Shown here: piece after piece, positions 7,819-53,336 of the stretch
How positions within the stretch are numbered: the first letter of the stretch is position 1
How the letters are laid out: each line of letters opens with the position of its first letter
Assembly (NCBI GenBank): GCA_964580765.1
Contig: CAZOKW010000003.1
Coordinates: 1 to 53,396 of the forward strand
Length of the DNA: 53,396 bases
Source of the DNA: an uncultured Candidatus Saccharibacteria bacterium
GTDB taxonomy: Bacteria; Patescibacteriota; Minisyncoccia; 2-02-FULL-40-12; IGHO2-12-FULL-4
Direction of reading: 5' to 3'
Translations under genes and position numbers: made by a program
The notes under the pieces: model-generated
The model's database searches: none
What the model saw: only the letters and a program-made list of their open reading frames with translations
What the model was told of the DNA's origin: nothing

Positions 7819-7907
7819 AAATAAGTTATAAAGTTCATAAAGTTCATAAAGTAAAAAATTTTGACTTGATGGACTTGATAAACTTTATAACTTGATAAAC
7901 TAATATC

Positions 7908-14537: not shown

Positions 14538-15512
14538 ATGTCACCTCGTGTTTTTATAATCATTCTCCAGTACAACCATTCCCAAGACACTATTAAGTGC
14601 CTTGATTCGGTTGGGAAATTGACCTACCCCAACTTTCAAACAGTTGTCGTGGACAATGCTTCTCAAAGTTCTGAAAAAGATAATATCAAGAACTACATAA
14701 AAAGTCAAGGCAACATTGTTTTGCTCGAAAATGAAAAAAATTTGGGATACGCCGGAGGAAATAATACCGGAATAAAATACGCTTTAGCCCATGGCGCGGA
14801 TTATGTTTTCATTTTAAATAACGACACGACTGTTCCGCCGGACTTACTTGAGAAATTGGTAAACGAAGGGGAAAGTGACTCTAAAATTGGAATAGTGGGA
14901 CCGGCCATCAAAGAAGGGGATGGGCGAATCGCTTACTACGGAAAAATCTCCTGGCTCAAAGCAGAACTGAAACATGTCTATGGAAAATCAGCCATACACC
15001 TACTCGAAAATTCCCGAGCGACAAGTCGAGGGTCGAGAGTGGGTGGTATGGCTGATTTTCCCGATCGAGTACGAGTATTAGGGCCGAAAGAATATGTCAT
15101 CGGGGCGGGAATGCTTATCAAAAAAGAGGTACTGGAAAAGATAGATGGTTTTGATGAGGTTTACTTTCTATATTTTGAAGATGCCGACCTCTGTCTGCGC
15201 GCCCAATTAGCCGGTTATAAGCTCAAAATTGCCCCAGAAACAATGATTTATCACCAAGGAGCCGCCAGCACCTCTACTCTTGGCAAACCGCTACTTTTAC
15301 GGTACCATATGAGGAACGCTCTGATTTTTAACTCGCTCAACGCGCCTTGGCCAGTTAAGTTTAGTTTAATCTTCTGGTCCAGCTACATTTTACTGAAAAA
15401 CTTTTTGAAAGTTTTTCTTTTGCCATCCAAAGTAACGGCCGGAGAAGCCATCATTGACGGCGTGCTGGATTTTTATAAAAACAACTACGGAAAAATAAAT
15501 ACTCCCAATTAA
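14538..15512 (+). CDS. GT2-family glycosyltransferase with an in-frame family-2 element insertion
   Basis: VVDNASQ, GYAGGNNTG and EDADLCLRAQLAGYKL motifs. The frame is maintained across the 14985-15058 insert, which encodes KSAIHLLENSRATSRGSRVGGMADF. Confidence 0.75.
   Translation: MSPRVFIIILQYNHSQDTIKCLDSVGKLTYPNFQTVVVDNASQSSEKDNIKNYIKSQGNIVLLENEKNLGYAGGNNTGIKYALAHGADYVFILNNDTTVPPDLLEKLVNEGESDSKIGIVGPAIKEGDGRIAYYGKISWLKAELKHVYGKSAIHLLENSRATSRGSRVGGMADFPDRVRVLGPKEYVIGAGMLIKKEVLEKIDGFDEVYFLYFEDADLCLRAQLAGYKLKIAPETMIYHQGAASTSTLGKPLLLRYHMRNALIFNSLNAPWPVKFSLIFWSSYILLKNFLKVFLLPSKVTAGEAIIDGVLDFYKNNYGKINTPN
14985..15058. mobile_element. family-2 RPE-like palindromic element, copy 1, in-frame in the GT2 gene
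   Basis: aaatcagccatacacc...ctcgaaaattcccgagcgacaagtcgagggtcgagagtgggtgg...tatggctgattt with a terminal 16-bp imperfect inverted repeat. Confidence 0.7.
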
Positions 15513-15520
15513 TTAAATTG

Positions 15521-15691
15521 CTAGCTTTCGTTCAAATATGACCGATTGGCTGCAAATTACCGAAGCGGAGTGAAAATTTGGCCGGTAGATTAAAATTCGG
15601 TCCGACTCTTGGAGGGGTACTGAATTTTAGTCGGCAAATTGAGCAAAGCGAGGATAATTTGTCCAAGAGGACATCTTGAAAAGAGAGCTGG
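15521..15691 (+). ncRNA. candidate structured element SE, copy 1, upstream of the GT4 gene
   Basis: Near-identical to 34399-34589 over about 160 nt (ttcaaatatgNNcgattgg...ggaggggtactgaattttagtcggcaaattga...gcgaggataatttgtccaagagg.catcttgaaaagaga). It ends 17 nt before the ATG at 15709. Confidence 0.4.
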
Positions 15692-16875: not shown

Positions 16876-18749
16876 TGCGAGAGGCTCCGGTGGACATACT
16901 TTTGTTCGACGGCGCTACAGGGATTCCGCAACGGGCCACTGCAGACATTGTGGCTACCGTTGCGGAACCTTCCATGCGACACAAAAGTGTCCCCACTCCG
17001 CCTCTGGTAAATATGTTTAAACACTTTGATACTCTTAAAAAACCAGTTAATGTCATCTTCCTAGTCCAAATTGTGGTCGTCTTTTTGGTGGCCTTCGGTG
17101 TCTGGCCAAGAACACTGATAATTCCTTTGACGGCCTTAATCGCCATTTTTATTTTACGAGCCGATTTGGAAACATCCGCTTCTTTTTTTATCCGCTCCAT
17201 ACCACTTTTCGTGGCCATTCCTTTTACCTCTTATTTTGATTCTTTCAATATCTGGCGAATCGCCGGGGGATTGATTTTTTTGAAATGGTTTTATCAATCG
17301 TACAAAGAAAGGATAAGAATAGCGGGCAAATCAGCCATACACCTACTCGAAAATTCCCGAGGAGATTCTATGGGCGGGCTAAAGCACCGCCCACCAGAAA
17401 CTTCTCCTGACAGCGACAGTCGAGGGTCGAGAGTGGGTGGTATGGCTGATTTGCTAGTCATAAAAATTAAAAAATATCCTTTAGCGTCTTTGTTAACGAC
17501 TTTTCTTTTACTTTCCACCCTATCCCTTCTAGCCGCCGAAGATATTTTTACTGGAATCAAAAGAATAATTTATTTAATCAATTTGAGTTTAGTTCCTCTA
17601 GTCGTTTACGACTTGATTAAAAAAAAACCCGCCCTCATCAAAAAGTTCTTAGATAGCATTTTGATTTCTGGAGTAATCGTGGCCGGAGTCGGCATCACCC
17701 AGTTAGTCAGCGCTTACTTAATGCCTTTGGGCGCTTTTCTGGATTTTTGGGGAGGTACGGTTCAGCTTGGCTTTTATGGCTCACAGTGGTCCAGTATCGC
17801 TTTAGAAGGGAACACTTGGTTTGCCTACTTCGGCGACCAACTATCTTTGCGAATTTTTTCAACTTTTACGGACTCTCACTCTTTTCCGGTTTACCTTTTA
17901 ATGACAATTCCAGCTCTCTTGGCTTTAGCTAAACTCACTTGGAAACGGGGTTTCCAAGTGAGTGGAATCGTTCTCCTTGTCTTGTATCTTCTGATTATCC
18001 TAAGCGGCACCCGAGGAATATGGTTAGCCGTTTTAGGACCTTTACTGGCTTGGCCGGTTTTAGTTAATTTTCTAAAAAGGGATGGGGGGAGTTTAGAAAA
18101 AAGTTTGTTAAAAAAACTCGGATTGCTCCTTTTGCCATTTTTTCTTCTTTTCGCCGCCGCTTTTCCTATTATGGGCTCGGACCAATTCTGGGTTGAAAAA
18201 GAAAATAATCAAATTCTGGCCAAACGGATTCGTTCCGTTCTCGATTTGAACGAGACATCAAATAGTGGACGGGTAGAAATCTGGAAAAAAACGGTCAAAT
18301 CAATTATTCACCGTCCGCTCCTGGGGGTGGGGATTGGTAACTTTCCAACTGTTCTTTCTCAGCATACTGACTTGGCCAAAGCCGGCTCTTCTGCGCATAA
18401 TCTCTATCTCCATATTGCCGCCGAAATCGGCCTAGTCGGGCTTTTAGCCGCTTTAGGTATTTTGTTCATAATTTTAAAAAGAAGTTGGGATGTTTTCCGA
18501 AGAGCCAATCAGCCACACCCCCACTCGAAAATTCCCGAGCGAGGAGTCGGGGGTCGAGAGTGGGTCGGTGTGGCTGATTGGCTCACTATTAAAACCTACG
18601 CTGCCGCTTTTGTCCTTTACAGTTTGTGGGTTTTGTTTTACTCTTTAACGGATGCGATAATGTTTGACGAGCGCGTTTTTCTCGTTTTTGCCATTAATTC
18701 AGCCGTTATTTTAGGTCTATATAAAACAAAATCCGCCTTAGCGGATTAA
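16875..18749 (+). CDS. O-antigen ligase (Wzy_C)-like polytopic membrane protein, with two in-frame family-2 element insertions
   Basis: Many TM helices. HNLYLHIAAEIGLVGLL Wzy_C-like motif. The start is uncertain because the first 40 codons overlap a family-1 remnant. Confidence 0.6.
   Translation: MREAPVDILLFDGATGIPQRATADIVATVAEPSMRHKSVPTPPLVNMFKHFDTLKKPVNVIFLVQIVVVFLVAFGVWPRTLIIPLTALIAIFILRADLETSASFFIRSIPLFVAIPFTSYFDSFNIWRIAGGLIFLKWFYQSYKERIRIAGKSAIHLLENSRGDSMGGLKHRPPETSPDSDSRGSRVGGMADLLVIKIKKYPLASLLTTFLLLSTLSLLAAEDIFTGIKRIIYLINLSLVPLVVYDLIKKKPALIKKFLDSILISGVIVAGVGITQLVSAYLMPLGAFLDFWGGTVQLGFYGSQWSSIALEGNTWFAYFGDQLSLRIFSTFTDSHSFPVYLLMTIPALLALAKLTWKRGFQVSGIVLLVLYLLIILSGTRGIWLAVLGPLLAWPVLVNFLKRDGGSLEKSLLKKLGLLLLPFFLLFAAAFPIMGSDQFWVEKENNQILAKRIRSVLDLNETSNSGRVEIWKKTVKSIIHRPLLGVGIGNFPTVLSQHTDLAKAGSSAHNLYLHIAAEIGLVGLLAALGILFIILKRSWDVFRRANQPHPHSKIPERGVGGREWVGVADWLTIKTYAAAFVLYSLWVLFYSLTDAIMFDERVFLVFAINSAVILGLYKTKSALAD
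16878..16918. repeat. truncated family-1 hairpin element (half copy, minus orientation)
   Basis: gaggctccggtggacatacttttgttcgacggcgct matches the left half of the reverse-oriented copy at 36301-36380. Confidence 0.4.
17328..17452. mobile_element. family-2 RPE-like element, copy 2, with a 50-nt internal insertion
   Basis: Same termini aaatcagccatacacc / ggtatggctgattt. The extra internal hairpin is gggcgggctaaagcaccgccc. It is in-frame in the ligase gene. Confidence 0.65.
18505..18581. mobile_element. family-2 RPE-like element, copy 3
   Basis: ccaatcagccacacc / ggtgtggctgattgg is a perfect 15-bp terminal stem with paired compensatory changes (atac to acac, gtat to gtgt). It is read in a different frame from copy 2 within the same ligase gene. 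Confidence 0.65.
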
Positions 18750-30065: not shown

Positions 30066-31397
30066 TTATAGGTAATCTAATGGATTTATTGAACCTTCAA
30101 AATAGTTAAAATATAACTGGCCGTTTTTTTCGTTGATATAAGTAAAGAAATCTTTATAAACACTTAGATGTAAATGGGAGCCGGTGGAATTTCCGGTAGA
30201 CCCCTCATAACCGATAACATCACTGGCCGTAACCGCCAAACCATTAACCAAACCGGAAGGAGCGCGCAGATGAGCGTAAACACTGACCAATCCGCCATTG
30301 TGCCGCACAGCCACCCAATGGCCGAAACCATCGTTAAACCCGCTGGCCAAAATATTTCCGGCGGCCATCGGATGAATGGCCGTACCATAACCGCCCGCCA
30401 AATCAATCCCGTTATGAGGAGCGCCACCATAAGGTTTTCGTCTGGAACGGGCATAAGCGGTATATCCGTAACCTTGGGTAATGTGATATTCATCTTCCGG
30501 CCATTGAAAAATTTTAGTTCCCCGCGGAGGAACCGCATCAGCCGTCACATGTACGATAAAAGCCCCAGACTGCAAGGCCTGATCTTCCAAATTCTTTAAT
30601 TCCGCGAAAAACTCCGCTTCTTTCTTCTCCGTTTCCGCCAGTAATTTTTGATACTCCGCCTCCTGCCCCTTGGTCCTGACCAAAAGATTGTTCTTGTTCG
30701 ATTTGGTGCCGCTTAAAGCCACCTGCTGATTCTTCTGTGAATTATTCAACTTTTCCAAATCCTGTTTTTTTATTTCCAGTTCGGTCTTATTTTCTTCCAG
30801 TTCTTGGCGTTCGTTTTTTAAAACAGTAATGGCGGCCAACAAACTCTTGTTTAAATTATCGGCCTGCTTGGCTTGATCCAAAAAATCGGAAAGGTGGTTA
30901 TTTTTCAACAAAATAGCCAGCCAGTTTTCCCGGTCGTTTTGATACATCATTTTCAGTAAACTGCCCACCGTATCTTGACGATTTTTGATCTTTTCGTGCC
31001 GGTCAAAAATTTTATCGCGCAAATCCCCGATTACCAACTGTGTAGAGGAAATCTTATTTCCGGTTATTCTGACTTCCGTTTCCAACCGGCTGATCTGATT
31101 GGTCAAAACGCTTATTTCTTTTTGTAAACTAGTCGCCTCCTTTTGCTTGCCGGAAACAACTTTTTTATATTCATCTGATTTCTTTTGCAGTTCTTCCAAC
31201 TGTTTTCTCAAGTCCAATATTTTCTGATTGACATCTTCCGCCGCCAATCCAGATCCGGAATAAAAAAAGAAAGAGAAGAAAACGACCAGGCAAATCAGCC
31301 ATACACCTACCTGAAAACTCCCGAGCGACAAGTCGAGGGTCGAAGGTAGGTTGTATTGCTGATTTGCTAAAAATTTACTTTTGAATTGCTTTTTCAA
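30066..31397 (-). CDS. M23 family metallopeptidase with coiled-coil region (EnvC-like)
   Basis: Long coiled-coil. C-terminal HNGIDLA...GSTGNSTGSHLHLSV M23 motifs. The N-terminal 35 codons are encoded by the family-2 element copy at 31292-31365. Confidence 0.7.
   Translation of the reverse strand: MKKQFKSKFLANQQYNLPSTLDLSLGSFQVGVWLICLVVFFSFFFYSGSGLAAEDVNQKILDLRKQLEELQKKSDEYKKVVSGKQKEATSLQKEISVLTNQISRLETEVRITGNKISSTQLVIGDLRDKIFDRHEKIKNRQDTVGSLLKMMYQNDRENWLAILLKNNHLSDFLDQAKQADNLNKSLLAAITVLKNERQELEENKTELEIKKQDLEKLNNSQKNQQVALSGTKSNKNNLLVRTKGQEAEYQKLLAETEKKEAEFFAELKNLEDQALQSGAFIVHVTADAVPPRGTKIFQWPEDEYHITQGYGYTAYARSRRKPYGGAPHNGIDLAGGYGTAIHPMAAGNILASGFNDGFGHWVAVRHNGGLVSVYAHLRAPSGLVNGLAVTASDVIGYEGSTGNSTGSHLHLSVYKDFFTYINEKNGQLYFNYFEGSINPLDYL
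31292..31365. mobile_element. family-2 RPE-like element, copy 4, antisense within the 5' end of the M23 peptidase gene
   Basis: aaatcagccatacacctacc...cccgagcgacaagtcgagggtcgaaggtaggttgtattgctgattt. Confidence 0.6.
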
Positions 31398-34398: not shown

Positions 34399-34589
34399 AG
34401 TACCCACCCATCTTTTTTCAAATATGGTCGATTGGTTGCAAATTACCGAAGCGGAGTGAAAATTTGGCCGGTAGATTAAAATTCGGTCCGACTCTTGGAG
34501 GGGTACTGAATTTTAGTCGGCAAATTGAACGGAGCGAGGATAATTTGTCCAAGAGGGCATCTTGAAAAGAGAGGGGTGGGGACGGAGCT
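34399..34589 (+). ncRNA. candidate structured element SE, copy 2, upstream of fmt
   Basis: About 95% identical to copy 1. The 5' end gtacccacccatcttttttcaa is complementary to the 3' end cttgaaaagagaggggtggggac. It ends 9 nt before the fmt ATG. Confidence 0.4.
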
Positions 34590-37824: not shown

Positions 37825-38409
37825 TTAGATTACTTTTTTGCGTCTAAGAAATAACAAAGACAAAAGCGGGACAAAAGACCAGATAAAAGAGGCCGGCGGC
37901 CAAGCTAAATATTTCCTTATTACGGGATAGGAATTAAAAATAGAGTTATCAAAAGGAGGCGCATAAGAAATAATAATTGACAGCCAAAAGATTCCTTGCA
38001 GAATACTTAAGAAGAGAATAGTCATCGGCGGGGATTCTTGTAAAGACATCTTCGGTCTTAAAATCGAGCGGTTCAAGATCAAAACGGAAATGATGAAGAA
38101 AATTACAAAAATCAGGAGACGGGCCCAAAATATGGCCGGCAGGTTTAGAAAATCGCCAAAAAATTTAGCCAGTTCCAGCCGATAAATAAAGGTTGATTCC
38201 AGAAAAGCGGAAATATAAGTGGCCAATAGAGCCAGAACGATCTTGGTTTTACCAAAACTCAAAGCAATCAAAAAGATCACCAAAAGAAAAAACAAGAAAA
38301 ACAAACTGCCGCCACTGGTGACAGTTGAACTCATCAGGCCGTCCAGCCCGCTGAAATTTTTAGAAAAACTTCCGACAGAAGATAGGATTTTGATTAAAAA
38401 TTCCTGCAT
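37825..38409 (-). CDS. hypothetical polytopic membrane protein (CvpA-like topology)
   Basis: Four or more hydrophobic helices. Last gene of the minus-strand heat-shock operon. Confidence 0.45.
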   Translation of the reverse strand: MQEFLIKILSSVGSFSKNFSGLDGLMSSTVTSGGSLFFLFFLLVIFLIALSFGKTKIVLALLATYISAFLESTFIYRLELAKFFGDFLNLPAIFWARLLIFVIFFIISVLILNRSILRPKMSLQESPPMTILFLSILQGIFWLSIIISYAPPFDNSIFNSYPVIRKYLAWPPASFIWSFVPLLSLLFLRRKKVI

Positions 38410-38411
38410 TT

Positions 38412-38945
38412 TTAAACTTCGTCGTGAAAAACAACTTTAACAAATAAATCTCCGCCGGGAGCATGACCCTCGTTGTTTATCTGCAAAACAGCGCCGGCGA
38501 CAGTATCTTTGGGAATTTTTATTTCCACTCGCCGAGAAGCCGGTACCCTCCCCGCCCCGTTACATTTTAAACAATTAGGCGTCCGGAGAGTATTTTTATC
38601 CCGGCATTGCGAGCAAAAAATATACCGCTGATACTCCAAATAAACATACCCGCCTTGCCGGGCCTTTTGAGTACTGACCGGTAAATCCAAAAAAATGTCC
38701 CTCCCCTCTTTAAGGTCCTCTGGATTTTGGGATAGTTTTATCTGGCCGGTCGCACTGATAATATTTTTAAGGGCCGTTTGAAAAATTTCCGTGAAATTTT
38801 CCGGCAGCAGGCCTTCGGAATCATCAAAATCCAAATCTAAACCTTCAAGATTTTTTTCCGGAGTGACCGCCGTGCCAATCAAACTTCCCTGCCCTATTTT
38901 AGAAATGTCCAGTCCGTCAAAACTTTTGTCGTCTTTATTTGTCAT
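38412..38945 (-). CDS. DnaJ C-terminal-like protein (Cys-rich zinc-finger plus CTD, no J domain)
   Basis: CSQC...CLKCNGAG CxxCxG repeats and VEIKIPKDTVAGAVLQINNEGHAPGGDLFVKV match the DnaJ zinc-finger and CTD. No HPD-bearing J domain was seen. Confidence 0.55.
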   Translation of the reverse strand: MTNKDDKSFDGLDISKIGQGSLIGTAVTPEKNLEGLDLDFDDSEGLLPENFTEIFQTALKNIISATGQIKLSQNPEDLKEGRDIFLDLPVSTQKARQGGYVYLEYQRYIFCSQCRDKNTLRTPNCLKCNGAGRVPASRRVEIKIPKDTVAGAVLQINNEGHAPGGDLFVKVVFHDEV

Positions 38946-38956
38946 CTTGCTGTTGG

Positions 38957-39790
38957 TTAAAAATTAATTACATCCGCCTCTTTAGAGGCCTTTTCTATTT
39001 TTATGACTTTCAAGACCTTTAAGAACCAGAATAGGAACAAAGTCATCGCTACGGCCAGCCAGATAAATATCGTGCTTAATCCTTGCAGGATCAAAAACAA
39101 GCTAAAAGCGAAAATGGGGGGTAAGAAAACAAAATAAGGATTCAGAAAATTGGTAATCTGGCTAAGCACTGTTTCGGTGGCTTGGGCTCTTAAACTCGGA
39201 TTGGCTATCTCCAGATTTTCACTGACATAACTGCCCACCACCACTTGCACCGTTTTACGGACCGCGCCAGGCAATTCTTTTTTTTGGGCCGCCGCCTGCA
39301 CACCGCTGCTCAAAAAATATCCAAAGGAAATCAAAATTAAAACAGAGGTAATCAACCGCCGCAATCCCGGATCAACGGTTAATTTCAGATTGATTCGCAA
39401 ATGATTATTTTTTTCTCCCTGAATAATCTTGCGGGCGTAGAGTTGAAAGAAAAGAGCAATGGCCACTCCTCCCCAAGTAATAATATTGGTCGGATTAAAC
39501 AAAAGGGCAAAGATAATCAAATTCAAACCCATCACCAACCAAGTCGCCCATTGATCCAGCAATAGAAAAGAAAGCGCCAACAGGCCAGCCAACAGACAAA
39601 GCAACACCAACGGCCACAGCCATGTCTCCACGGCTTGAATCCGCCAGCCGGCGGACATCGGCCCTTCAATTAATGGCTTGGTCACCAACCAAAAAACCAG
39701 AGCCGCCACCGTCGTCACCGCCAAGAGAATTATTTGTTTGAGCATGCTAGATTTTCTTACTGAACAAAGTGAAGTTAGAAACATCTGCAC
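38957..39790 (-). CDS. hypothetical polytopic membrane protein
   Basis: Six or more TM helices. Located between the DnaJ-CTD-like gene and clpB. Confidence 0.45.
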   Translation of the reverse strand: MQMFLTSLCSVRKSSMLKQIILLAVTTVAALVFWLVTKPLIEGPMSAGWRIQAVETWLWPLVLLCLLAGLLALSFLLLDQWATWLVMGLNLIIFALLFNPTNIITWGGVAIALFFQLYARKIIQGEKNNHLRINLKLTVDPGLRRLITSVLILISFGYFLSSGVQAAAQKKELPGAVRKTVQVVVGSYVSENLEIANPSLRAQATETVLSQITNFLNPYFVFLPPIFAFSLFLILQGLSTIFIWLAVAMTLFLFWFLKVLKVIKIEKASKEADVINF

Positions 39791-39884
39791 CCAGCTCTTT
39801 CTAAGCTACCCACGACTAATAACTTGGACAGATTAATTCTGTTACATATTCTTCTTTTTGTGGATACTTTAGAAAGAGCTGGGT
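39789..39884. mobile_element. MITE-like element with 17-bp inverted repeats
   Basis: acccagctctttctaag at 39789 and ttagaaagagctgggt at 39869 (16/17 match), about 60 bp apart. Confidence 0.4.
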
Positions 39885-39939
39885 AACTATTTGTTATCGT
39901 ACTCGTCTCGCTAAGCTCGACTGCGTACGGACAAATAAG

Positions 39940-42624
39940 TTACTTAAATACTACAATAAATATCCCATCTTTGAAATCCACATTTATCACCGTTCCCCGC
40001 GCCGGCTTCTCCCGCAAGATCTCATCGGAGATGCGGTTCTCAATTTGTTTTTGGATTATCCTGCGCAACTCCCGCGCTCCAAAATGAGGGTCATATCCTT
40101 CTTCGGCAATTTTAGCGACGGCCTCCGGACTGATCTTTAAATCATAACCGGATTTATTTAAGCGGGATTGCAAAAATCCTAATTGCAATTTTACTATTTC
40201 GGCGATCTGTTCTCTGGGTAAACCGTGGAAAACAATAATTTCATCCAAACGGTTTAAAAACTCCGGCCGGAAATACTTTTTAAGCTCATCTTTAAGTTTG
40301 ACCCGCAAGTCCTCGTAAGCCATCTGTTTCTTTTCTTCTTTGTCCAGTTCGTGCTGAATAATATCAGAACCGACATTACTGGTGGCGATAATAATAGTAT
40401 TGGTAAAATCAACTACCCGGCCCTGCCCGTCGGTCAGTCGTCCGTCCTCCAAAACCTGCAAAAGGACATTAAAAATATCCGGATGGGCTTTTTCAATTTC
40501 ATCCAACAGAACGATAGAGTGGGGACGGCGGCGGACCGCTTCGGTCAACTGTCCCCCTTCTTCAAACCCCACATAGCCTGGAGGAGCGCCGATCAACCGC
40601 GCCACATTGTGCCTCTCCATATATTCCGACATATCCAGCCGAATCATGGCCTCCTGATTTCCGAACATCACCTGCGCTAAAGAACGGGATAATTCCGTCT
40701 TGCCCACTCCGGTCGGACCTAAAAATATAAAAGAAGCGATGGGACGATGCGGATCGCCCAAGCCCGCCCGGGACCGACGAATAGCGCTGGCCACCGCTTT
40801 GATGGCCTCTTCTTGTCCGATCACCCGCAAAGACAACTTTTTCTCCAGATTCAAAAGTTTTTCCCGCTCTTCTTCGGTTAGTTCACTGACCGGAATGCCA
40901 GTTAATTTGGAAACAACCTCCGCAATGGCATGCTCGTTCACCACCGGAATACTTCGGCCGATTGATTCCTGCCATTGGTCAAAAAGCTGTTCCCTCTTTT
41001 TTTCCAATTCACCAATCTCTTTTTTAATTTTATCCGCTTCTTTTATTTTCTTGGCTCGCTGGGCCGCTTCTAACTCTTTTTTAAGAGAATGGATATTTTC
41101 ATCCAATTCCCGTACCTCCTGCGGTTCGGAGGTAGATTGAATCCGCACCCGCGCCGCCGCCTGATCCATCAGGTCAATGGCTTTATCCGGCAAAAAACGA
41201 GAAGTAATATAACGATCGGAAAGCTCCGCCGCCGCCGCCAGCGCTTCGTCTAAAATCTTGATCCGGTGATGTGATTCATAACGATCCCGCAAACCGCGCA
41301 AAATTTCAACGGCCTGTCCTACGGTCGGTTCTGGTATGACAATCGGCTGGAATCTTCTTTCCAGCGCCTGGTCTTTCTCAATGTATTTTTTGTATTCTTT
41401 TAAAGTAGTAGCCCCCACCACATGCAGTTCACCTCGGGCCAAAGATGGTTTGAAAATATTAGCCGCGTCCATCCCCGATTCCCCGCCGGAACCGGTGCCG
41501 ACTAAAAGATGCAATTCATCTATAAAAATTATTAAGTTATCCCGATTAGCTTTTATTTCTTCAATGATAACCTTGAGCCGTTCTTCCAAATCACCCCGAA
41601 AACGGGTACCGGACATAATGGCCGCCAAATCCAGTTCCGCTAATCTTTTTCCAAACAATGACTCCGGCACACTGCCGGAAACAATGCGTTGCGCTAATCC
41701 CTCCACGATAGCGGTCTTACCAACCCCCGGCTCCCCGATTAGCACCGGATTGTTTTTGGTGCGGCGGGACAAAATTTCCACCGCCGTTTCAATTTCTTTA
41801 GACCGGCCAATAACCGGGTCCAGTTTCCCTTCCCTAGCCAACTGGGTCAGATCGCGGGAAAATTTGTCTAAAGTAGGCGTATTCATTTTAATAACACTCT
41901 CCGCTTTGCCCATCCCCACTTTTTTGATGATTTTCTGGCGCAAAGGGCCGGCATCGGCCAGACCATATCTTTTCAAAAGCTGACTGGCCAATCCCTCGCC
42001 TTCTTTAATCAAGGCCAGAACTAAATGTTCCGGGCCGATGTAATTGTGATTCAAAGCGCGAGCTTCGTCCAAAGACAGATCAAAAACCCTTTTCAAGCGG
42101 GGAGAATATTCTAATTCCTGTGGCACAGTTGTGCCCTTGATCATATTATCTTTGATCTCTTTTTCCAGTGATTTAACATCAATTTTTAACTGCTTCAGAA
42201 CGCCGGCCACGATCTCGTTTTGCAACAAACTAAACAAAAGATGCTCCGTATCGATCATGGCATGCCTGCTATCTTGGGCGAACTCCGCCGCCCGGTCTAA
42301 AATACCGTTGGCCTCATCGGAAAGATAATCTGTGAAATCCACTCTTTCTTCCGAGGGAGCGCGCATTTGGCCGGGCAAACCAAGTCCCTCCAATCCACTA
42401 CCACCCAGACCACCGCCCTGACCGCTTCCGCCACCTCCAAAAATATCTCCAAAAAGACCGCCAAAGATGTCATTTAAATTGCCGAACTCCCGGCCACTGG
42501 AACGACCCTGGGTCTTATTGGCGCACTGCTGGCAAATATCCTTAACCTGTTTGACGCCATTTTTTATAATGCTGATTTTGCCGCTCGCCCTATTCTTCTT
42601 ACAAATATCGCAAATATTATTCAT
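39940..42624 (-). CDS. clpB: ClpB/ClpC-type Hsp100 chaperone ATPase with an N-terminal ClpX-like C4 zinc ribbon and a Gly/Phe-rich linker
   Basis: Two AAA+ modules (GEPGVGKTAIVEGLA and FLGPTGVGKTELSRSLA), a coiled-coil M-domain, a Clp_N-like segment and GAPPGYVGFEEGG. The N-terminus CDICKK-x21-CQQC followed by DIFGGLFGDIFGGGGSGQGGG is unusual. Confidence 0.85.
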   Translation of the reverse strand: MNNICDICKKNRASGKISIIKNGVKQVKDICQQCANKTQGRSSGREFGNLNDIFGGLFGDIFGGGGSGQGGGLGGSGLEGLGLPGQMRAPSEERVDFTDYLSDEANGILDRAAEFAQDSRHAMIDTEHLLFSLLQNEIVAGVLKQLKIDVKSLEKEIKDNMIKGTTVPQELEYSPRLKRVFDLSLDEARALNHNYIGPEHLVLALIKEGEGLASQLLKRYGLADAGPLRQKIIKKVGMGKAESVIKMNTPTLDKFSRDLTQLAREGKLDPVIGRSKEIETAVEILSRRTKNNPVLIGEPGVGKTAIVEGLAQRIVSGSVPESLFGKRLAELDLAAIMSGTRFRGDLEERLKVIIEEIKANRDNLIIFIDELHLLVGTGSGGESGMDAANIFKPSLARGELHVVGATTLKEYKKYIEKDQALERRFQPIVIPEPTVGQAVEILRGLRDRYESHHRIKILDEALAAAAELSDRYITSRFLPDKAIDLMDQAAARVRIQSTSEPQEVRELDENIHSLKKELEAAQRAKKIKEADKIKKEIGELEKKREQLFDQWQESIGRSIPVVNEHAIAEVVSKLTGIPVSELTEEEREKLLNLEKKLSLRVIGQEEAIKAVASAIRRSRAGLGDPHRPIASFIFLGPTGVGKTELSRSLAQVMFGNQEAMIRLDMSEYMERHNVARLIGAPPGYVGFEEGGQLTEAVRRRPHSIVLLDEIEKAHPDIFNVLLQVLEDGRLTDGQGRVVDFTNTIIIATSNVGSDIIQHELDKEEKKQMAYEDLRVKLKDELKKYFRPEFLNRLDEIIVFHGLPREQIAEIVKLQLGFLQSRLNKSGYDLKISPEAVAKIAEEGYDPHFGARELRRIIQKQIENRISDEILREKPARGTVINVDFKDGIFIVVFK

Positions 42625-42737
42625 GTTTGCTTCGCAAACTAGTTTATAAAGTTCGTAAAGTTCTTCAAGTTTATCAAGTAAGATTCTTTTTCAACTTCTT
42701 TACTTTATAAACTTGATGGACTTTATAACTTGATAAA

Positions 42738-43493
42738 CTAATTTAACTCGTTCATTTTTTTTGTTATGTATTTTAACAAAGATAGATTTCTGTGATAAGC
42801 CATGCGCATCGGCCCAATGACGGCCGAGACACCTTCATGCCCCTCCGGCAACGGATAGCGGGCAATAATTATGGCCTCTTTTTGAGTATGCTTATGGGGA
42901 TTTTCCCGGCCAATATAGACCACTAATTCTTTGGGGCCTTGTCCCAAAAACTGACTGAAATAATTTTCAAATTCATCAAAGATATTTCCAAAACCGAAAA
43001 AGTCATCCCTCTCCCTCGCCTCGCTGGAGCTCCGGCGAAGCGGGTCGAACTCCGGCGATTCCAAAATATTGGAAAACCCCATGCGATAAAATTCGTTGGT
43101 GTCGGCAAGACCGCTAATCACAAAATCATCCACCAGGTTAGACATGGTTTTGGCCAAACCGGAACTGATGGCATGCGCTTCACGGGGAGAATGCTCAATG
43201 GCCCGGTCAATCGCTCGGCGGTCCTGCGCCGGCAAGTCGCCGGTTTTTTCTTTTTCCTGAAGCAATTTATCCACAAAAAAACGGTAGGCCTTGTCGGTTG
43301 GCACCCGCCCGGCGGAAGTATGGGGCTGGCGAAGATAACCATCCTTTTCCAATCCCATCATCTCCGCCCGCAAAGTGGCCGGACTGCAGTCAAACCCGCA
43401 TTTTTCCGCCAAAAAACTTGAGCTGATTGGTTCGGCCTTTTTGACATATTCTTTAATTAAGACCTGGAGTATTTCCTCCTGCCTGGAAGTCAT
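42738..43493 (-). CDS. hrcA: heat-inducible transcription repressor HrcA
   Basis: N-terminal winged-helix ILQVLIKEYVKKAEPISSSFLAEKCGFDCSPATLRAEMMGLEKDGYL. Sits directly upstream of clpB. Confidence 0.85.
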   Translation of the reverse strand: MTSRQEEILQVLIKEYVKKAEPISSSFLAEKCGFDCSPATLRAEMMGLEKDGYLRQPHTSAGRVPTDKAYRFFVDKLLQEKEKTGDLPAQDRRAIDRAIEHSPREAHAISSGLAKTMSNLVDDFVISGLADTNEFYRMGFSNILESPEFDPLRRSSSEARERDDFFGFGNIFDEFENYFSQFLGQGPKELVVYIGRENPHKHTQKEAIIIARYPLPEGHEGVSAVIGPMRMAYHRNLSLLKYITKKMNELN

Positions 43494-43517
43494 TTTACTC
43501 TCATTATATCCCTATGA

Positions 43518-43544
43518 TTAGCAGTGTCAAGCCGAGAGTGCTAA
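43518..43544. promoter_or_regulatory. CIRCE-like operator (HrcA site) upstream of hrcA
   Basis: TTAGCAGTG-N9-GAGTGCTAA against the consensus TTAGCACTC-N9-GAGTGCTAA (2 mismatches in the left arm). A second TAGCACTC ... GAGTGCCAA pair with a 45-nt hairpin-forming spacer lies at 43564-43627. Confidence 0.6.
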
Positions 43545-43694
43545 TCATAAAACTAGCACTCTCAAGCCTGCCCCGTAGGGTCGCGAAAGCGACTCCTTCG
43601 GGGTCAAGAGTGCCAACATTTTAATTCCTCTTGACTCAAGTGTTAGAAGATGGTATCGTTGTCCAAAGTTTGTTTTCTTTTAAAAGGAGCTGTC

Positions 43695-43988
43695 ATGCGA
43701 CCTAAAATCATTGAAACTGATAGCCGAGTTTACAGCAAGCCCACTATGTGTTTGGATTGTCATCTGGTTGTGAATATGTCTCACGAACAAAACACTGATC
43801 CAGTTAAAGGGGCCTGGCAGTGTCCTAAATGTGGACATCAATATAAATTTGCTCACTGGAAGATTAAGAATAGAAAAGGAAAAAATGAACCGACACCGGA
43901 ACCAGAGACAGAAAATAAAAAAGGGGCGACATTCTTACCAAACTGGTCGGACGCACTCTCCCAAAGTCAAAATTATAAAAGAAAATAG
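43695..43988 (+). CDS. hypothetical zinc-ribbon protein
   Basis: Start at the MRPKIIE ATG, which has AAGGAG upstream. CLDCH...CPKCGH is a C4 zinc ribbon. Basic C-terminal tail. Confidence 0.4.
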   Translation: MRPKIIETDSRVYSKPTMCLDCHLVVNMSHEQNTDPVKGAWQCPKCGHQYKFAHWKIKNRKGKNEPTPEPETENKKGATFLPNWSDALSQSQNYKRK

Positions 43989-49032: not shown

Positions 49033-49291
49033 GTCCCACCCACCTTCTTTTCAAATATGAGCTCGCCGGCATAAATAAACGAAGATTTCTGAAATCAAGC
49101 CGGTAATAAAAATTGGGTCCGATGGTTTCGAGGGGTACTGAATTTTTGTCGGCTTGATGCGGTTAAAGTGAATTGTTTCACTTTAACCCCGAATTTTAGT
49201 CCGAGCTCCTGCGAGGACGTTAGGAAATTCGGAAAACCTTTTTATTGGCACGGCGAGTGATTCTTGAAAAGAGGTGGGTGGGGACGGAGCG
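49033..49291 (+). ncRNA. candidate structured element SE, copy 3 (divergent, with an extra internal hairpin), upstream of dnaB
   Basis: Shares ttcaaatatg, gccgg, ggtccga...gaggggtactgaatttt.gtcggc, gcgagga and cttgaaaagagg with copies 1 and 2. The 5' end gtcccacccaccttcttttcaa pairs with the 3' end cttgaaaagaggtgggtggggac. The inserted perfect hairpin is gttaaagtga/tcactttaac. Confidence 0.4.
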
Positions 49292-52198: not shown

Positions 52199-53314
52199 CT
52201 ATCTCCCTGGTGCCGCAGAAAAGGTCTGCGACTCCTGTTCCTTCGAGAAAGTGAGCTTATCGCTCGACGGAGCCAGGTCGATCTTGATCACATCACCCAG
52301 GCCGATCTGACCTGTCGCGATCAGATTCGACAACGGATAGACGAAGTGCCGTTCGATGGCGCGTTTTAAATGACGCGCACCATACTTCAGGTCGGTACCT
52401 TCGCGAAGGAGAAATTCTTTCGCCTCAGCCATGCATCGGAAATAAAACCTAATGTCCAACGAAGACGCCATGATGCGGTTCTGAACTTCATTCAGCTCGA
52501 TGTCCAGCACCTGCCTCAGGTCTTGATGGTTGAGCGTTCGGAAAACAACTACCTTATCGAGTCTGTTCATGAACTCGGGCGAGAACTTGCGTTTCGCCAC
52601 CTCGAGAGCGGTATGGTACATCTTCCGGTCAATCGATTCGAGGTTCGATGCGTCGGTGCGCACACCGGAAGTAAAGCCGATTCCTCCGCTGAGCATTTCG
52701 CTCATCTCGACGGCTCCGAGATTCGAGGTCATGAACACAACGCATCGCGACAGATCGACTTTGCGATTATCGCCCAGCGTCAATGTCGCCTTATCGAGGA
52801 TGCCCAGCAGGAGCTGCCACAGGGCCTCGTTTGCCTTCTCGATCTCGTCAAACAGGACGAAGGTCATTCGGCAACGATCGGTTTGATGCTGGTCGATCGC
52901 CTCCTGCGTCAGCAAAGGCGGAGTCTCACGGTGTCCGAGATAGCCCGGAGGGGAGCCGATCAATTTTGCGATTTCGTGGCTGTGCTGGAATTCGGCACAG
53001 TCAAGTTTTACAAAAGCCCGGGGGCTGCCGAAGAGAATCTCTGCAGAGGCCTCTACCACTCTTGTTTTACCTGAACCCGTTGGACCCAGAAAAAGCAGGT
53101 TACCGATCGGACGGCCCGGTACCGCCATGCCGGCCAGATAGATTTGATACATGTTCACAATTCTGCGAACCGCTCGATCCTGGCCGACGATCTTGCCCGA
53201 AAGACGGCGTTCGAAGTCGAGAACTTCCGAACTTCTTATTTCAGGATCGAGGAGTACCTCTTTTTGCGTTTGGGGCTTCATAAGCCCTCCTTTCTTAGTT
53301 ATTTGGGGCTTCAT
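52199..53314 (-). CDS. stand-alone Hsp100 D2-like AAA+ ATPase (ClpB C-terminal module homologue); GC-rich gene
   Basis: VGQDRAVRRIVN, FLGPTGSGKT and LIGSPPGYLGH...VLFDEIEKA...VFMTSNLG match the ClpA/B D2 module. Visibly GC-rich by eye (not counted). Two tandem start sites. Confidence 0.7.
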   Translation of the reverse strand: MKPQITKKGGLMKPQTQKEVLLDPEIRSSEVLDFERRLSGKIVGQDRAVRRIVNMYQIYLAGMAVPGRPIGNLLFLGPTGSGKTRVVEASAEILFGSPRAFVKLDCAEFQHSHEIAKLIGSPPGYLGHRETPPLLTQEAIDQHQTDRCRMTFVLFDEIEKANEALWQLLLGILDKATLTLGDNRKVDLSRCVVFMTSNLGAVEMSEMLSGGIGFTSGVRTDASNLESIDRKMYHTALEVAKRKFSPEFMNRLDKVVVFRTLNHQDLRQVLDIELNEVQNRIMASSLDIRFYFRCMAEAKEFLLREGTDLKYGARHLKRAIERHFVYPLSNLIATGQIGLGDVIKIDLAPSSDKLTFSKEQESQTFSAAPGR

Positions 53315-53336
53315 AAGCCCTCCTTTCTTAGTTATT
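53271..53336. repeat. perfect 2 x 33-bp tandem duplication covering the RBS and start codon of the Clp-D2-like gene
   Basis: tggggcttcataagccctcctttcttagttatt occurs twice. On the minus strand each unit carries AAGGAGGG followed by ATG, giving in-frame starts at 53314 and 53281. Confidence 0.8.

Follow-up and report, generated by a model that had tools for sequence, protein, structure and literature searches.

We describe here a candidate five-gene heat-shock operon found in a 53,396-nt stretch of DNA (the window) from an uncultured groundwater bacterium of a Parcubacteria lineage. The operon occupies positions 37825-43544 of the window, with all its genes on the minus strand, and is read 5' to 3' as a CIRCE-like operator (controlling inverted repeat of chaperone expression) with a sigma-70 promoter, hrcA, the gene of a large Hsp100 ATPase, a membrane protein gene (tm1), a gene for a 177-aa protein derived from DnaJ, and a second membrane protein gene (tm2). 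By its predicted domain architecture the ATPase is a disaggregase of the ClpG/ClpK type and not ClpB, and the 177-aa product is, according to its alignments and predicted fold, a remnant of a class A DnaJ, reduced to the client-binding C-terminal domain I (CTD-I) and a half-size zinc finger. Together with the mechanism proposed below, this account of hrcA, a clpG-like gene, tm1, a J-less dnaJ-like gene and tm2 as one heat-shock unit is, in our view, probable, if by no means settled. The initial annotation of the region, made from the sequence alone, was right in placing a CIRCE-like operator ahead of hrcA and genes for an Hsp100, a membrane protein, a DnaJ derivative and another membrane protein downstream on the same strand. 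Its naming of the ATPase as ClpB and its suggestion of chaperone-module shuffling with a split DnaJ are not upheld: a known disaggregase architecture adjoins a reductively evolved DnaJ, and recent shuffling is not supported.

The assignment of the ATPase is carried first of all by the way in which it aligns along its length. Its Pfam domains are Clp_N, AAA, AAA_lid_9, AAA_2 and ClpB_D2-small; among the domains named for the region at the outset Clp_N (PF02861, E 1e-24) and, in the 177-aa protein, DnaJ CTD-I were recovered, whereas zf-C4_ClpX was not. The NCBIfam model of ClpG (NF033607) aligns residues 3-887 as one stretch, with the profile matched only to position 881 of 932, whereas the ClpB model TIGR03346 (994 bits, below its cut-off of 1232) aligns in two stretches broken at the M-domain. 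The same is seen with solved structures, where ClpC is the best match (877 bits, one stretch) and the ClpB chains of the PDB align in two pieces. The two Walker A motifs are 339 aa apart; in E. coli ClpB they are separated by about 399 aa, so that the spacing is that of ClpC and ClpG rather than of ClpB. Over its whole length, from residue 1-4 to the end, the protein is about 50% identical to the products of ClpG-type plasmid genes, annotated as 'AAA family ATPase', from Burkholderia, Paracoccus, Deinococcus and others (tblastn). With the Hsp70-dependent ClpB it has in common two AAA modules, Clp_N, D2-small, the lack of a ClpP loop and the high score; it differs in an M-domain about 60 aa shorter, in the two-piece alignment and in an additional N-terminal domain, N1, and the long two-wing M-domain of ClpB, with motif 1 and motif 2 and its DnaK docking, is not present. 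A Foldseek search with the model of the N-terminal part gave ClpC1 and ClpC N-terminal domains as top matches (target-normalised template modelling score 0.8-0.89), which likens the second N-terminal domain (N2) to that of ClpC; these matches dominate the output, which is uninformative on N1.

The second line of evidence comes from N1. The protein has four cysteines in all, C5, C8, C31 and C34, arranged as CxxC-x22-CxxC; the two pairs noticed initially are thus real, and only their spacing, given as x21, has to be corrected. The proposal that they form a zinc ribbon agrees with the AlphaFold2 model, in which a predicted beta-hairpin (strands 15-21 and 24-30) is followed by a helix (32-40) at a predicted local distance difference test score (pLDDT) of 84-91. 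When 27 ClpG-like N-termini from Proteobacteria, Actinomycetota and several Patescibacteria were aligned, C5, C8 and C31 were invariant or nearly so, the fourth ligand was Cys or His, and N1 stood in register with ClpK and other N1 domains, I17 being aligned with V17 of ClpG. By nuclear magnetic resonance the N1 of ClpG binds zinc via C6/C9/C31/H34, its beta-sheet leads into a helix whose last residue is 41, and substrate is contacted mainly by V17 (PMC10641755); N1 is essential for aggregate binding by ClpG (PMC10641755, PMC8024975). A profile of the N1 family searched against the PDB found the ClpK N1 structure 8p66 (E 5e-16), McsA (1e-8) and ClpE (1e-6), the latter two in register from residue 1. 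The N-terminal zinc ribbon of the Hsp100 is thus, as judged by profile and alignment, the N1 domain of ClpG/ClpK, and it groups with the N-termini of McsA and ClpE. These Firmicutes zinc fingers belong to the same small zinc-ribbon family, with the difference that ClpE works with ClpP, and that McsA is not an ATPase and activates the McsB kinase. In the solved-structure search ClpE aligned to the Hsp100 only from query residue 252; ClpE has no Clp_N. The ClpG structure paper likewise states the homology of N1 to ClpE and McsA (PMC10641755).

The 177-aa protein was initially described as a DnaJ zinc-finger and C-terminal domain derivative free of a J-domain, and this is supported. TIGR02349 matches at E 4e-12 over the fourth CxxC motif and CTD-I; every PDB match found by Foldseek at E <=1e-3 is an Hsp40 C-terminal domain (DNAJA2, Ydj1, Hdj1, bacterial DnaJ); PF01556 is matched at E 0.002 (18.7 bits, below the cut-off of 26.6). 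BLASTP against a canonical Patescibacteria DnaJ (E 6e-8) aligned the protein twice, residues 80-140 with 122-185 and, overlapping them, residues 106-171 with 191-261, and therefore zinc motifs 1 and 4 were kept and motifs 2 and 3 deleted. The only cysteines are two pairs, C111/C114 and C125/C128. The protein ends where DnaJ, of 354-359 residues, has reached position 255-261 or so; the J-domain, CTD-II and the dimerisation domain are all missing, as is a true Gly/Phe (G/F) region. Without these parts it should be unable to activate the ATPase of Hsp70, and it is probably a monomer. What precedes CTD-I and its single zinc centre is a disordered N-terminus, which contains an FDGLD motif, and a predicted helix at 51-65 (within ENFTEIFQTALKNII). 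In a wide family alignment D10, G11 and D13 of FDGLD are invariant throughout, even where a J-like domain is present, and this constancy points to a docking motif.

The family is small (12 clusters in the first search; four at E <1e-30 before canonical DnaJs appear in a representative search), and its longer members are instructive. They have 230-300 aa and start with a J-like domain recognised by Pfam; the HPD motif is found in 0/15 of these relatives and in 3/3 canonical Patescibacteria DnaJs. The deepest relatives (P0142, P0283-P0287) retain all four CxxC motifs, and in P0004 a J-like remnant is half deleted. Since the deeper relatives combine an HPD-less J-like domain with four CxxC motifs, the 177-aa protein appears to have arisen stepwise: HPD and CTD-II were lost, then zinc centre II, and then the J-domain. 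Class A DnaJ such as Ydj1 or DNAJA2 is the closest known system, as the protein aligns to, and is modelled as, a CTD-I with the CxxC...CxxCxGxG zinc site; it departs from that class in all of the missing parts, the second zinc centre included. DnaJ-derived modules that do not stimulate Hsp70 are also represented by HPD-less 'type IV' J-like proteins and by DnaJ-like zinc-finger proteins, of which BSD2 and OR are plastid examples. Those are eukaryotic or plastid proteins and mostly a zinc finger only, whereas here a bacterial CTD-I module stands in an Hsp100 operon. CTD-I is the client-binding part of class A J-domain proteins, and removal of the J-domain raises the holdase activity of DNAJA2 (PMC10480186).

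The linkage of the genes was surveyed by tblastn of the five window proteins against 18 related loci, where the five-gene order is the same wherever the contig permits. HrcA is encoded in 8/8 loci whose contigs reach far enough upstream, and tm1 is at the same position in 16/18, which are all those with a contig long enough. Identity to the window proteins is mostly 76-89% for Clp (55-58% on two partial loci), 63-81% for HrcA, 34-79% for tm1, 36-79% for tm2 and 26-61% for the DnaJ-like protein, the fastest-evolving product of the operon. Operon genes abut or overlap in the relatives. The neighbourhood consists of housekeeping genes (Nramp, cysS, efp), the same in several relatives, and is not a mobile island; tm2 is convergent with efp, which is downstream on the opposite strand. 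Upstream of two other ClpG-like genes of Patescibacteria (Andersenbacteria P0090, WWE3 P0027) there is no hrcA; the association with hrcA is therefore peculiar to the present clade. Neither tm1 nor tm2 matched any Pfam or NCBIfam family. A GTG start of tm1 at 39790 probably lies too far upstream, as homologues align from residue 15-17, and the gene is called at 262 aa from its ATG.

The initial statement that no grpE-dnaK-dnaJ is present here stands for the whole window: tblastn found no dnaK, grpE or second dnaJ in the 53 kb (with approximate dnaK and grpE queries), the only DnaK-like match being a 335-aa MreB-like open reading frame, and Pfam scans of the large reading frames agree.

Control of the operon by HrcA and CIRCE is plausible, because the operator overlaps the promoter and the relatives carry the canonical variant. 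The proximal element differs by two mismatches from the 9-N9-9 inverted repeat TTAGCACTC-N9-GAGTGCTAA, has inverted-repeat arms of 16 nt, and is the sole match in the window at up to three mismatches (0/100 shuffles gave any). The -35 hexamer of a promoter with 12/12 consensus positions lies inside its spacer and right arm, and the -10 hexamer ends 9 nt ahead of the hrcA ATG; bound HrcA would therefore be expected to occlude RNA polymerase. In four relatives the canonical CIRCE is TTGGCACTC-TTGACTGGA-GAGTGCCAA, followed by TGCTAAAAT, with the -35 hexamer (TTGAC(T)) within the spacer; these intact TTGGCACTC-N9-GAGTGCCAA elements are near-perfect palindromes. A second, distal element of the window has its arms 46 nt apart instead of 9, and its spacer holds a G+C-rich hairpin with inverted repeats at 43571-43603. 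By comparison with the relatives we read it as the surviving ancestral form of their CIRCE, split by about 37 extra hairpin-forming bases, and it looks like this insertion was followed by replacement of the operator and promoter by the downstream CIRCE and the perfect promoter. The hairpin was also considered as a repeated mobile element, which was rejected, its sequence being unique in the window.

HrcA itself is recognised by PF01628 (47.7 bits) and PF03444 (21.4 bits), both above their cut-offs, and by TIGR00331 at E 1e-50; there the score (173 bits) is below the cut-off of 197 because the protein is shorter than the model. The HrcA proteins of the relatives are likewise short, with 241-258 aa (L006, L010, L012). 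In the window protein and in these three homologues the first 90 positions of the Pfam profile for the HrcA C-terminal domain are unmatched. The HrcA of this clade may lack a part of the usual sensor and dimerisation region. The classical HrcA-CIRCE regulon (hrcA-grpE-dnaK-dnaJ, groESL) is resembled in having an HrcA-family gene first and a 9-N9-9 repeat overlapping the promoter. The differences are that a clpG-like gene and a DnaJ remnant would be regulated here and not grpE-dnaK-dnaJ, that HrcA is about 90 aa shorter, and that the clade has its own consensus arm (TTGGCACTC/GAGTGCCAA).

From these data we propose the following mechanism. At normal temperature HrcA would sit on CIRCE and occlude the promoter, and heat would release it. 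By analogy with characterised ClpG, the hexamer of the ClpG-like protein would bind aggregates via several N1 domains and thread polypeptides without DnaK. The DnaJ remnant, unable to signal to Hsp70, would most likely serve as a holdase or as a cofactor marking aggregates, as can be expected from DnaJ biology, and may dock via FDGLD or its N-terminal helix on the disaggregase or on the membrane proteins, and docking on the latter would put the system at the membrane. We may even suggest that this ClpG-type disaggregase is not a stand-alone one, that the DnaJ-derived module, stripped of the parts contacting Hsp70, is its dedicated targeting cofactor with two membrane proteins as an anchor, and that the whole makes a self-contained, Hsp70-independent machine under HrcA which, the genomes being reduced ones, may take the place of the missing hrcA-grpE-dnaK-dnaJ arrangement; this extension is speculative, and we consider it rather unlikely in its complete form.

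The main alternative is that the genes share heat-shock regulation and nothing else, the DnaJ remnant and the two membrane proteins being a separate membrane holdase or quality-control unit while the disaggregase acts alone, which we regard as a real, though minor, possibility. Characterised ClpG is autonomous (PMC8129007, PMC8024975), and the dnaJ-like gene is sandwiched between the membrane genes, with gaps of 11 nt to tm1 and 2 nt to tm2 in the window and overlaps in relatives; the much faster evolution of the DnaJ-like protein than of the ATPase speaks in the same sense. Against this, clp and tm1 likewise abut or overlap in relatives (L006 9202/9203, L010 5113/5113), and in none of the 18 related loci was the trio of tm1, dnaJ-like gene and tm2 seen without clp upstream.

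Several observations weigh against our account and have to be taken together. The ATPase reaches 993 bits against a cut-off of 1900 for NF033607, a model of the 'exception' type made for closely related proteobacterial ClpG. It also has no ClpG-like disordered Pro/Lys-rich C-terminal extension (20-40 residues), ending 13 aa past D2-small; ClpG is reported to disaggregate in vitro without this extension (PMC8024975). On both grounds we call it ClpG-type by architecture and not an equivalog. An N1 profile built from the five clade members only reaches McsA (E 0.07) and ClpE (E 1.1) weakly, though in register, and not ClpK N1. The AlphaFold2 model of the 177-aa protein is moderate, with a mean pLDDT of 56 and about 70 for residues 81-177. 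As to regulation, the proximal CIRCE carries its two mismatches and HrcA falls about 90 aa short of the usual length. The partnership of the DnaJ remnant with the disaggregase is the weakest step, argued from gene linkage only, and characterised ClpG needs no partner, while heat is reported not to induce clpG (PMC8129007).

The shuffling idea would have a ClpB into which the zinc-binding domain of ClpX and the G/F region of a DnaJ had moved ahead of Clp_N, the DnaJ parts divided over two genes, and the whole working through DnaK. What recommends it is the Gly/Phe stretch DIFGGLFGDIFGGGGSGQGGG at residues 52-72 of the Hsp100, where DIFGGLFGDIFGGG resembles the part of the DnaJ G/F region that contains DIF (LGDMFGGFGDIFGFGGGG in a canonical Patescibacteria DnaJ); according to Cajo 2006, cited in PMC6887450, the DIF motif modulates the cycle of DnaK. 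The similarity is not borne out by searches, as phmmer matches of the linker to DnaJ G/F in the PDB are marginal (E 0.7-2.4) and composition-corrected BLASTP against Patescibacteria DnaJ is not significant (E >4). The linker motif ND(I/L)FGGL(F/L)GD(I/L)FG lies in a part predicted to be disordered (residues 42-95), is kept in the clade (L003, L006, L010, L012) and can be aligned with SPLExLFG..LFDDFFG, a segment located after N1 in ClpG-like proteins from many phyla. The stretch is thus best described, on alignment, as a segment already present in ClpG that has become richer in glycine and whose likeness to DnaJ is compositional only. A ClpX-type zinc-binding domain was also rejected at the family level: the isolated N-terminus has no match to Pfam zf-C4_ClpX at E <=10, and two PDB profile searches returned no ClpX chain at E <=10; it is possible that N1 and the ClpX domain share a fold class of the zinc-ribbon/treble-clef type. 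With the M-domain not of the DnaK-binding form, N1 plus an F/G-rich segment common to ClpG-like proteins across phyla, and the DnaJ-like family devoid of HPD even where a J-like domain remains, the idea is largely refuted and we give it very little credit.

It is also highly improbable that the ATPase is an unfoldase of the ClpC/ClpE type, feeding ClpP for degradation instead of refolding, in spite of ClpC being the best solved-structure match, of N2 resembling its N-terminal domain and of the homology of N1 to the N-terminal domain of ClpE. The ClpP-docking (I/L/V)-G-(F/L) loop is absent from AAA2: in the alignment, gaps stand opposite the 'YVGF' of B. subtilis ClpC, and the protein is therefore not a ClpP partner. 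The only other xGF triplets are in the conserved PPGYVGF pore region and in an LGF of D2-small, and the window also encodes another Clp ATPase, which has one AAA module and a GIGF loop. Equally hard to sustain is the notion that the gene of the 177-aa protein is a DnaJ fragment in decay and without function, which would fit the successive loss of HPD, J-domain, two CxxC motifs and CTD-II and the fast evolution of the gene, for the reading frame is intact at the same position in 18/18 loci, the close family has 54 invariant positions, all four cysteines and FDGLD among them, and translational coupling to the neighbouring genes is maintained.

Our preferred reading, a ClpG-type disaggregase in an HrcA-controlled operon, is best appreciated by comparison with the described proteins of this type, P. 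aeruginosa ClpG and ClpG-GI and the Klebsiella and E. coli ClpK of the LHR/TLPQC heat-resistance island. The domain order is the same (N1, F/G-rich segment, N2, AAA1, short single-wing M-domain, AAA2), and so are the lack of a ClpP loop, the positions of the zinc ligands and the beta-strand residue I17/V17. The zinc site is here C4 versus C3H, the linker is much richer in glycine, the Pro/Lys-rich extension is missing and the score is below the NCBIfam cut-off; the gene is in a housekeeping neighbourhood versus a mobile island, appears to be directly under HrcA/CIRCE versus the reported lack of heat induction of clpG (PMC8129007), and is tied genetically to the DnaJ remnant and two membrane proteins. 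On a plasmid of Deinococcus wulumuqiensis (NZ_CP049359.1, L011) a ClpG-type gene is located beside transposases and followed by small membrane and stress proteins (DUF308, DUF2382), a context in keeping with the mobile islands of classical ClpG and unlike the chromosomal setting among housekeeping genes here.

Interest in ClpG has centred on a disaggregase that spreads horizontally, works without partners and underlies extreme heat resistance in pathogens; Pseudomonas ClpG acts autonomously and independently of DnaK, binding aggregates directly through several N1 domains (PMC8024975, PMC8129007, PMC10641755). In the literature searched we found no paper on ClpG in Patescibacteria, nothing relevant on bacterial J-less DnaJ partners, and no description of a disaggregase of the ClpG type that is either controlled by HrcA or genetically linked with a J-less DnaJ module and two membrane proteins. 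The architecture of the ATPase is therefore already known, and what we have not found described is its conserved pairing with a J-less DnaJ in an uncultured groundwater bacterium; the differences from described ClpG are, as predicted here, the HrcA/CIRCE control, the housekeeping setting and the fixed company of the DnaJ remnant and two membrane proteins. The operon presents the ClpG architecture as a conserved gene of an ultra-small uncultured bacterium, seemingly wired to the classical HrcA heat-shock switch. If the disaggregase and the DnaJ remnant cooperate, an Hsp40 substrate-binding module would serve an Hsp100 without Hsp70, which would bear on the question of how disaggregases gain their specificity for aggregates, and on the evolutionary derivation of Hsp70-dependent and autonomous systems one from the other. 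The relatives also offer a natural series for the role of CTD-I alone, from a full zinc finger with an HPD-less J-like domain through a half finger to no J-domain. The coordinates of all elements are collected in Table 1.

Table 1. Position of the operon elements and of the protein domains they encode, in window coordinates.
Feature	Position	Strand	Details
Distal, disrupted CIRCE	43553-43616	minus	arms TTGGCACTC and GAGTGCTAG
Proximal CIRCE-like HrcA operator	43518-43544	minus	TTAGCACTC-TCGGCTTGA-CACTGCTAA as read on the minus strand
Sigma-70-type promoter	43503-43530	minus	TTGACA, 16 nt, TATAAT
hrcA	42738-43493	minus	251 aa
ClpG/ClpK-type Hsp100 AAA+ disaggregase gene (predicted)	39940-42624	minus	894 aa
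N1 zinc-ribbon domain (aa 1-41)	42502-42624	minus	predicted Zn ligands C5, C8, C31, C34
Disordered Gly/Phe-rich N1-N2 linker (aa 42-98)	42331-42501	minus	pLDDT <50; DIFGGLFGDIFG linker
N2 domain (Clp_N repeats, aa 99-240)	41905-42330	minus	PF02861; AlphaFold2 pLDDT >95
AAA1 module (aa ~270-535)	41020-41817	minus	PF00004, PF17871; Walker A GEPGVGKT at 297
Short M-domain, single coiled-coil wing (aa ~536-598; approximate boundaries)	40831-41019	minus	from Walker A spacing and from ClpC aligning in one stretch, ClpB in two
AAA2 module and D2-small (aa 627-881)	39982-40746	minus	PF07724, PF10431; Walker A GPTGVGKT at 636
Membrane protein 1 (tm1)	38957-39745	minus	262 aa; ~6 hydrophobic segments by hydropathy
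J-domain-less DnaJ derivative	38412-38945	minus	177 aa
FDGLD motif (aa 9-13)	38907-38921	minus	predicted disordered region
Single zinc centre C111-x2-C114-x10-C125-x2-C128	38562-38615	minus	CxxC motifs 1 and 4 of DnaJ
Membrane protein 2 (tm2)	37825-38409	minus	194 aa; several hydrophobic segments; final operon gene

Two spacers of the operon carry further repeats. The 113-nt spacer between hrcA and clp contains, at 42699-42751, a 44-nt A+T-rich repeat (TTGATAAACTT-type units) which also occurs between genes at 7861-7904; it looks like a small interspersed element inserted here, because hrcA and clp overlap in relatives. The spacer between clp and tm1 (39791-39939), absent in relatives where the genes abut, holds long inverted repeats, for example ACCCAGCTCTTTCTAA and TTAGAAAGAGCTGGGT about 60 nt apart. 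Divergent from hrcA is a reading frame on the plus strand (43650-43988; 112 aa, 97 aa in the public annotation) with CLDC and CPKC pairs and a basic tail, which may encode a small zinc-ribbon protein.

Elsewhere in the window, where Rfam and tRNA scans gave nothing, a palindromic repeat family of about 77 nt (AATCAGCCATACACC...GGTATGGCTGATT) has four copies (14967-15058, 17310-17452, 18488-18579 and 31274-31365), some inside or at the ends of reading frames, and resembles a miniature inverted-repeat transposable element or an element of the repetitive extragenic palindromic type. A direct repeat of 157 nt, 96% identical, stands upstream of unrelated genes at 15531-15687 and 34417-34573, with a partial third copy near 49127-49153, and matched no Rfam family. 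The single-module Clp ATPase mentioned above (371 aa, AAA_2 and D2-small, 52199-53314 on the minus strand) has a GIGF loop of the ClpP type and no ClpX zinc-binding domain, and the 5' end of its gene carries an exact tandem duplication of 33 nt (53269-53334), by which the peptide ITKKGGLMKPQ is doubled.

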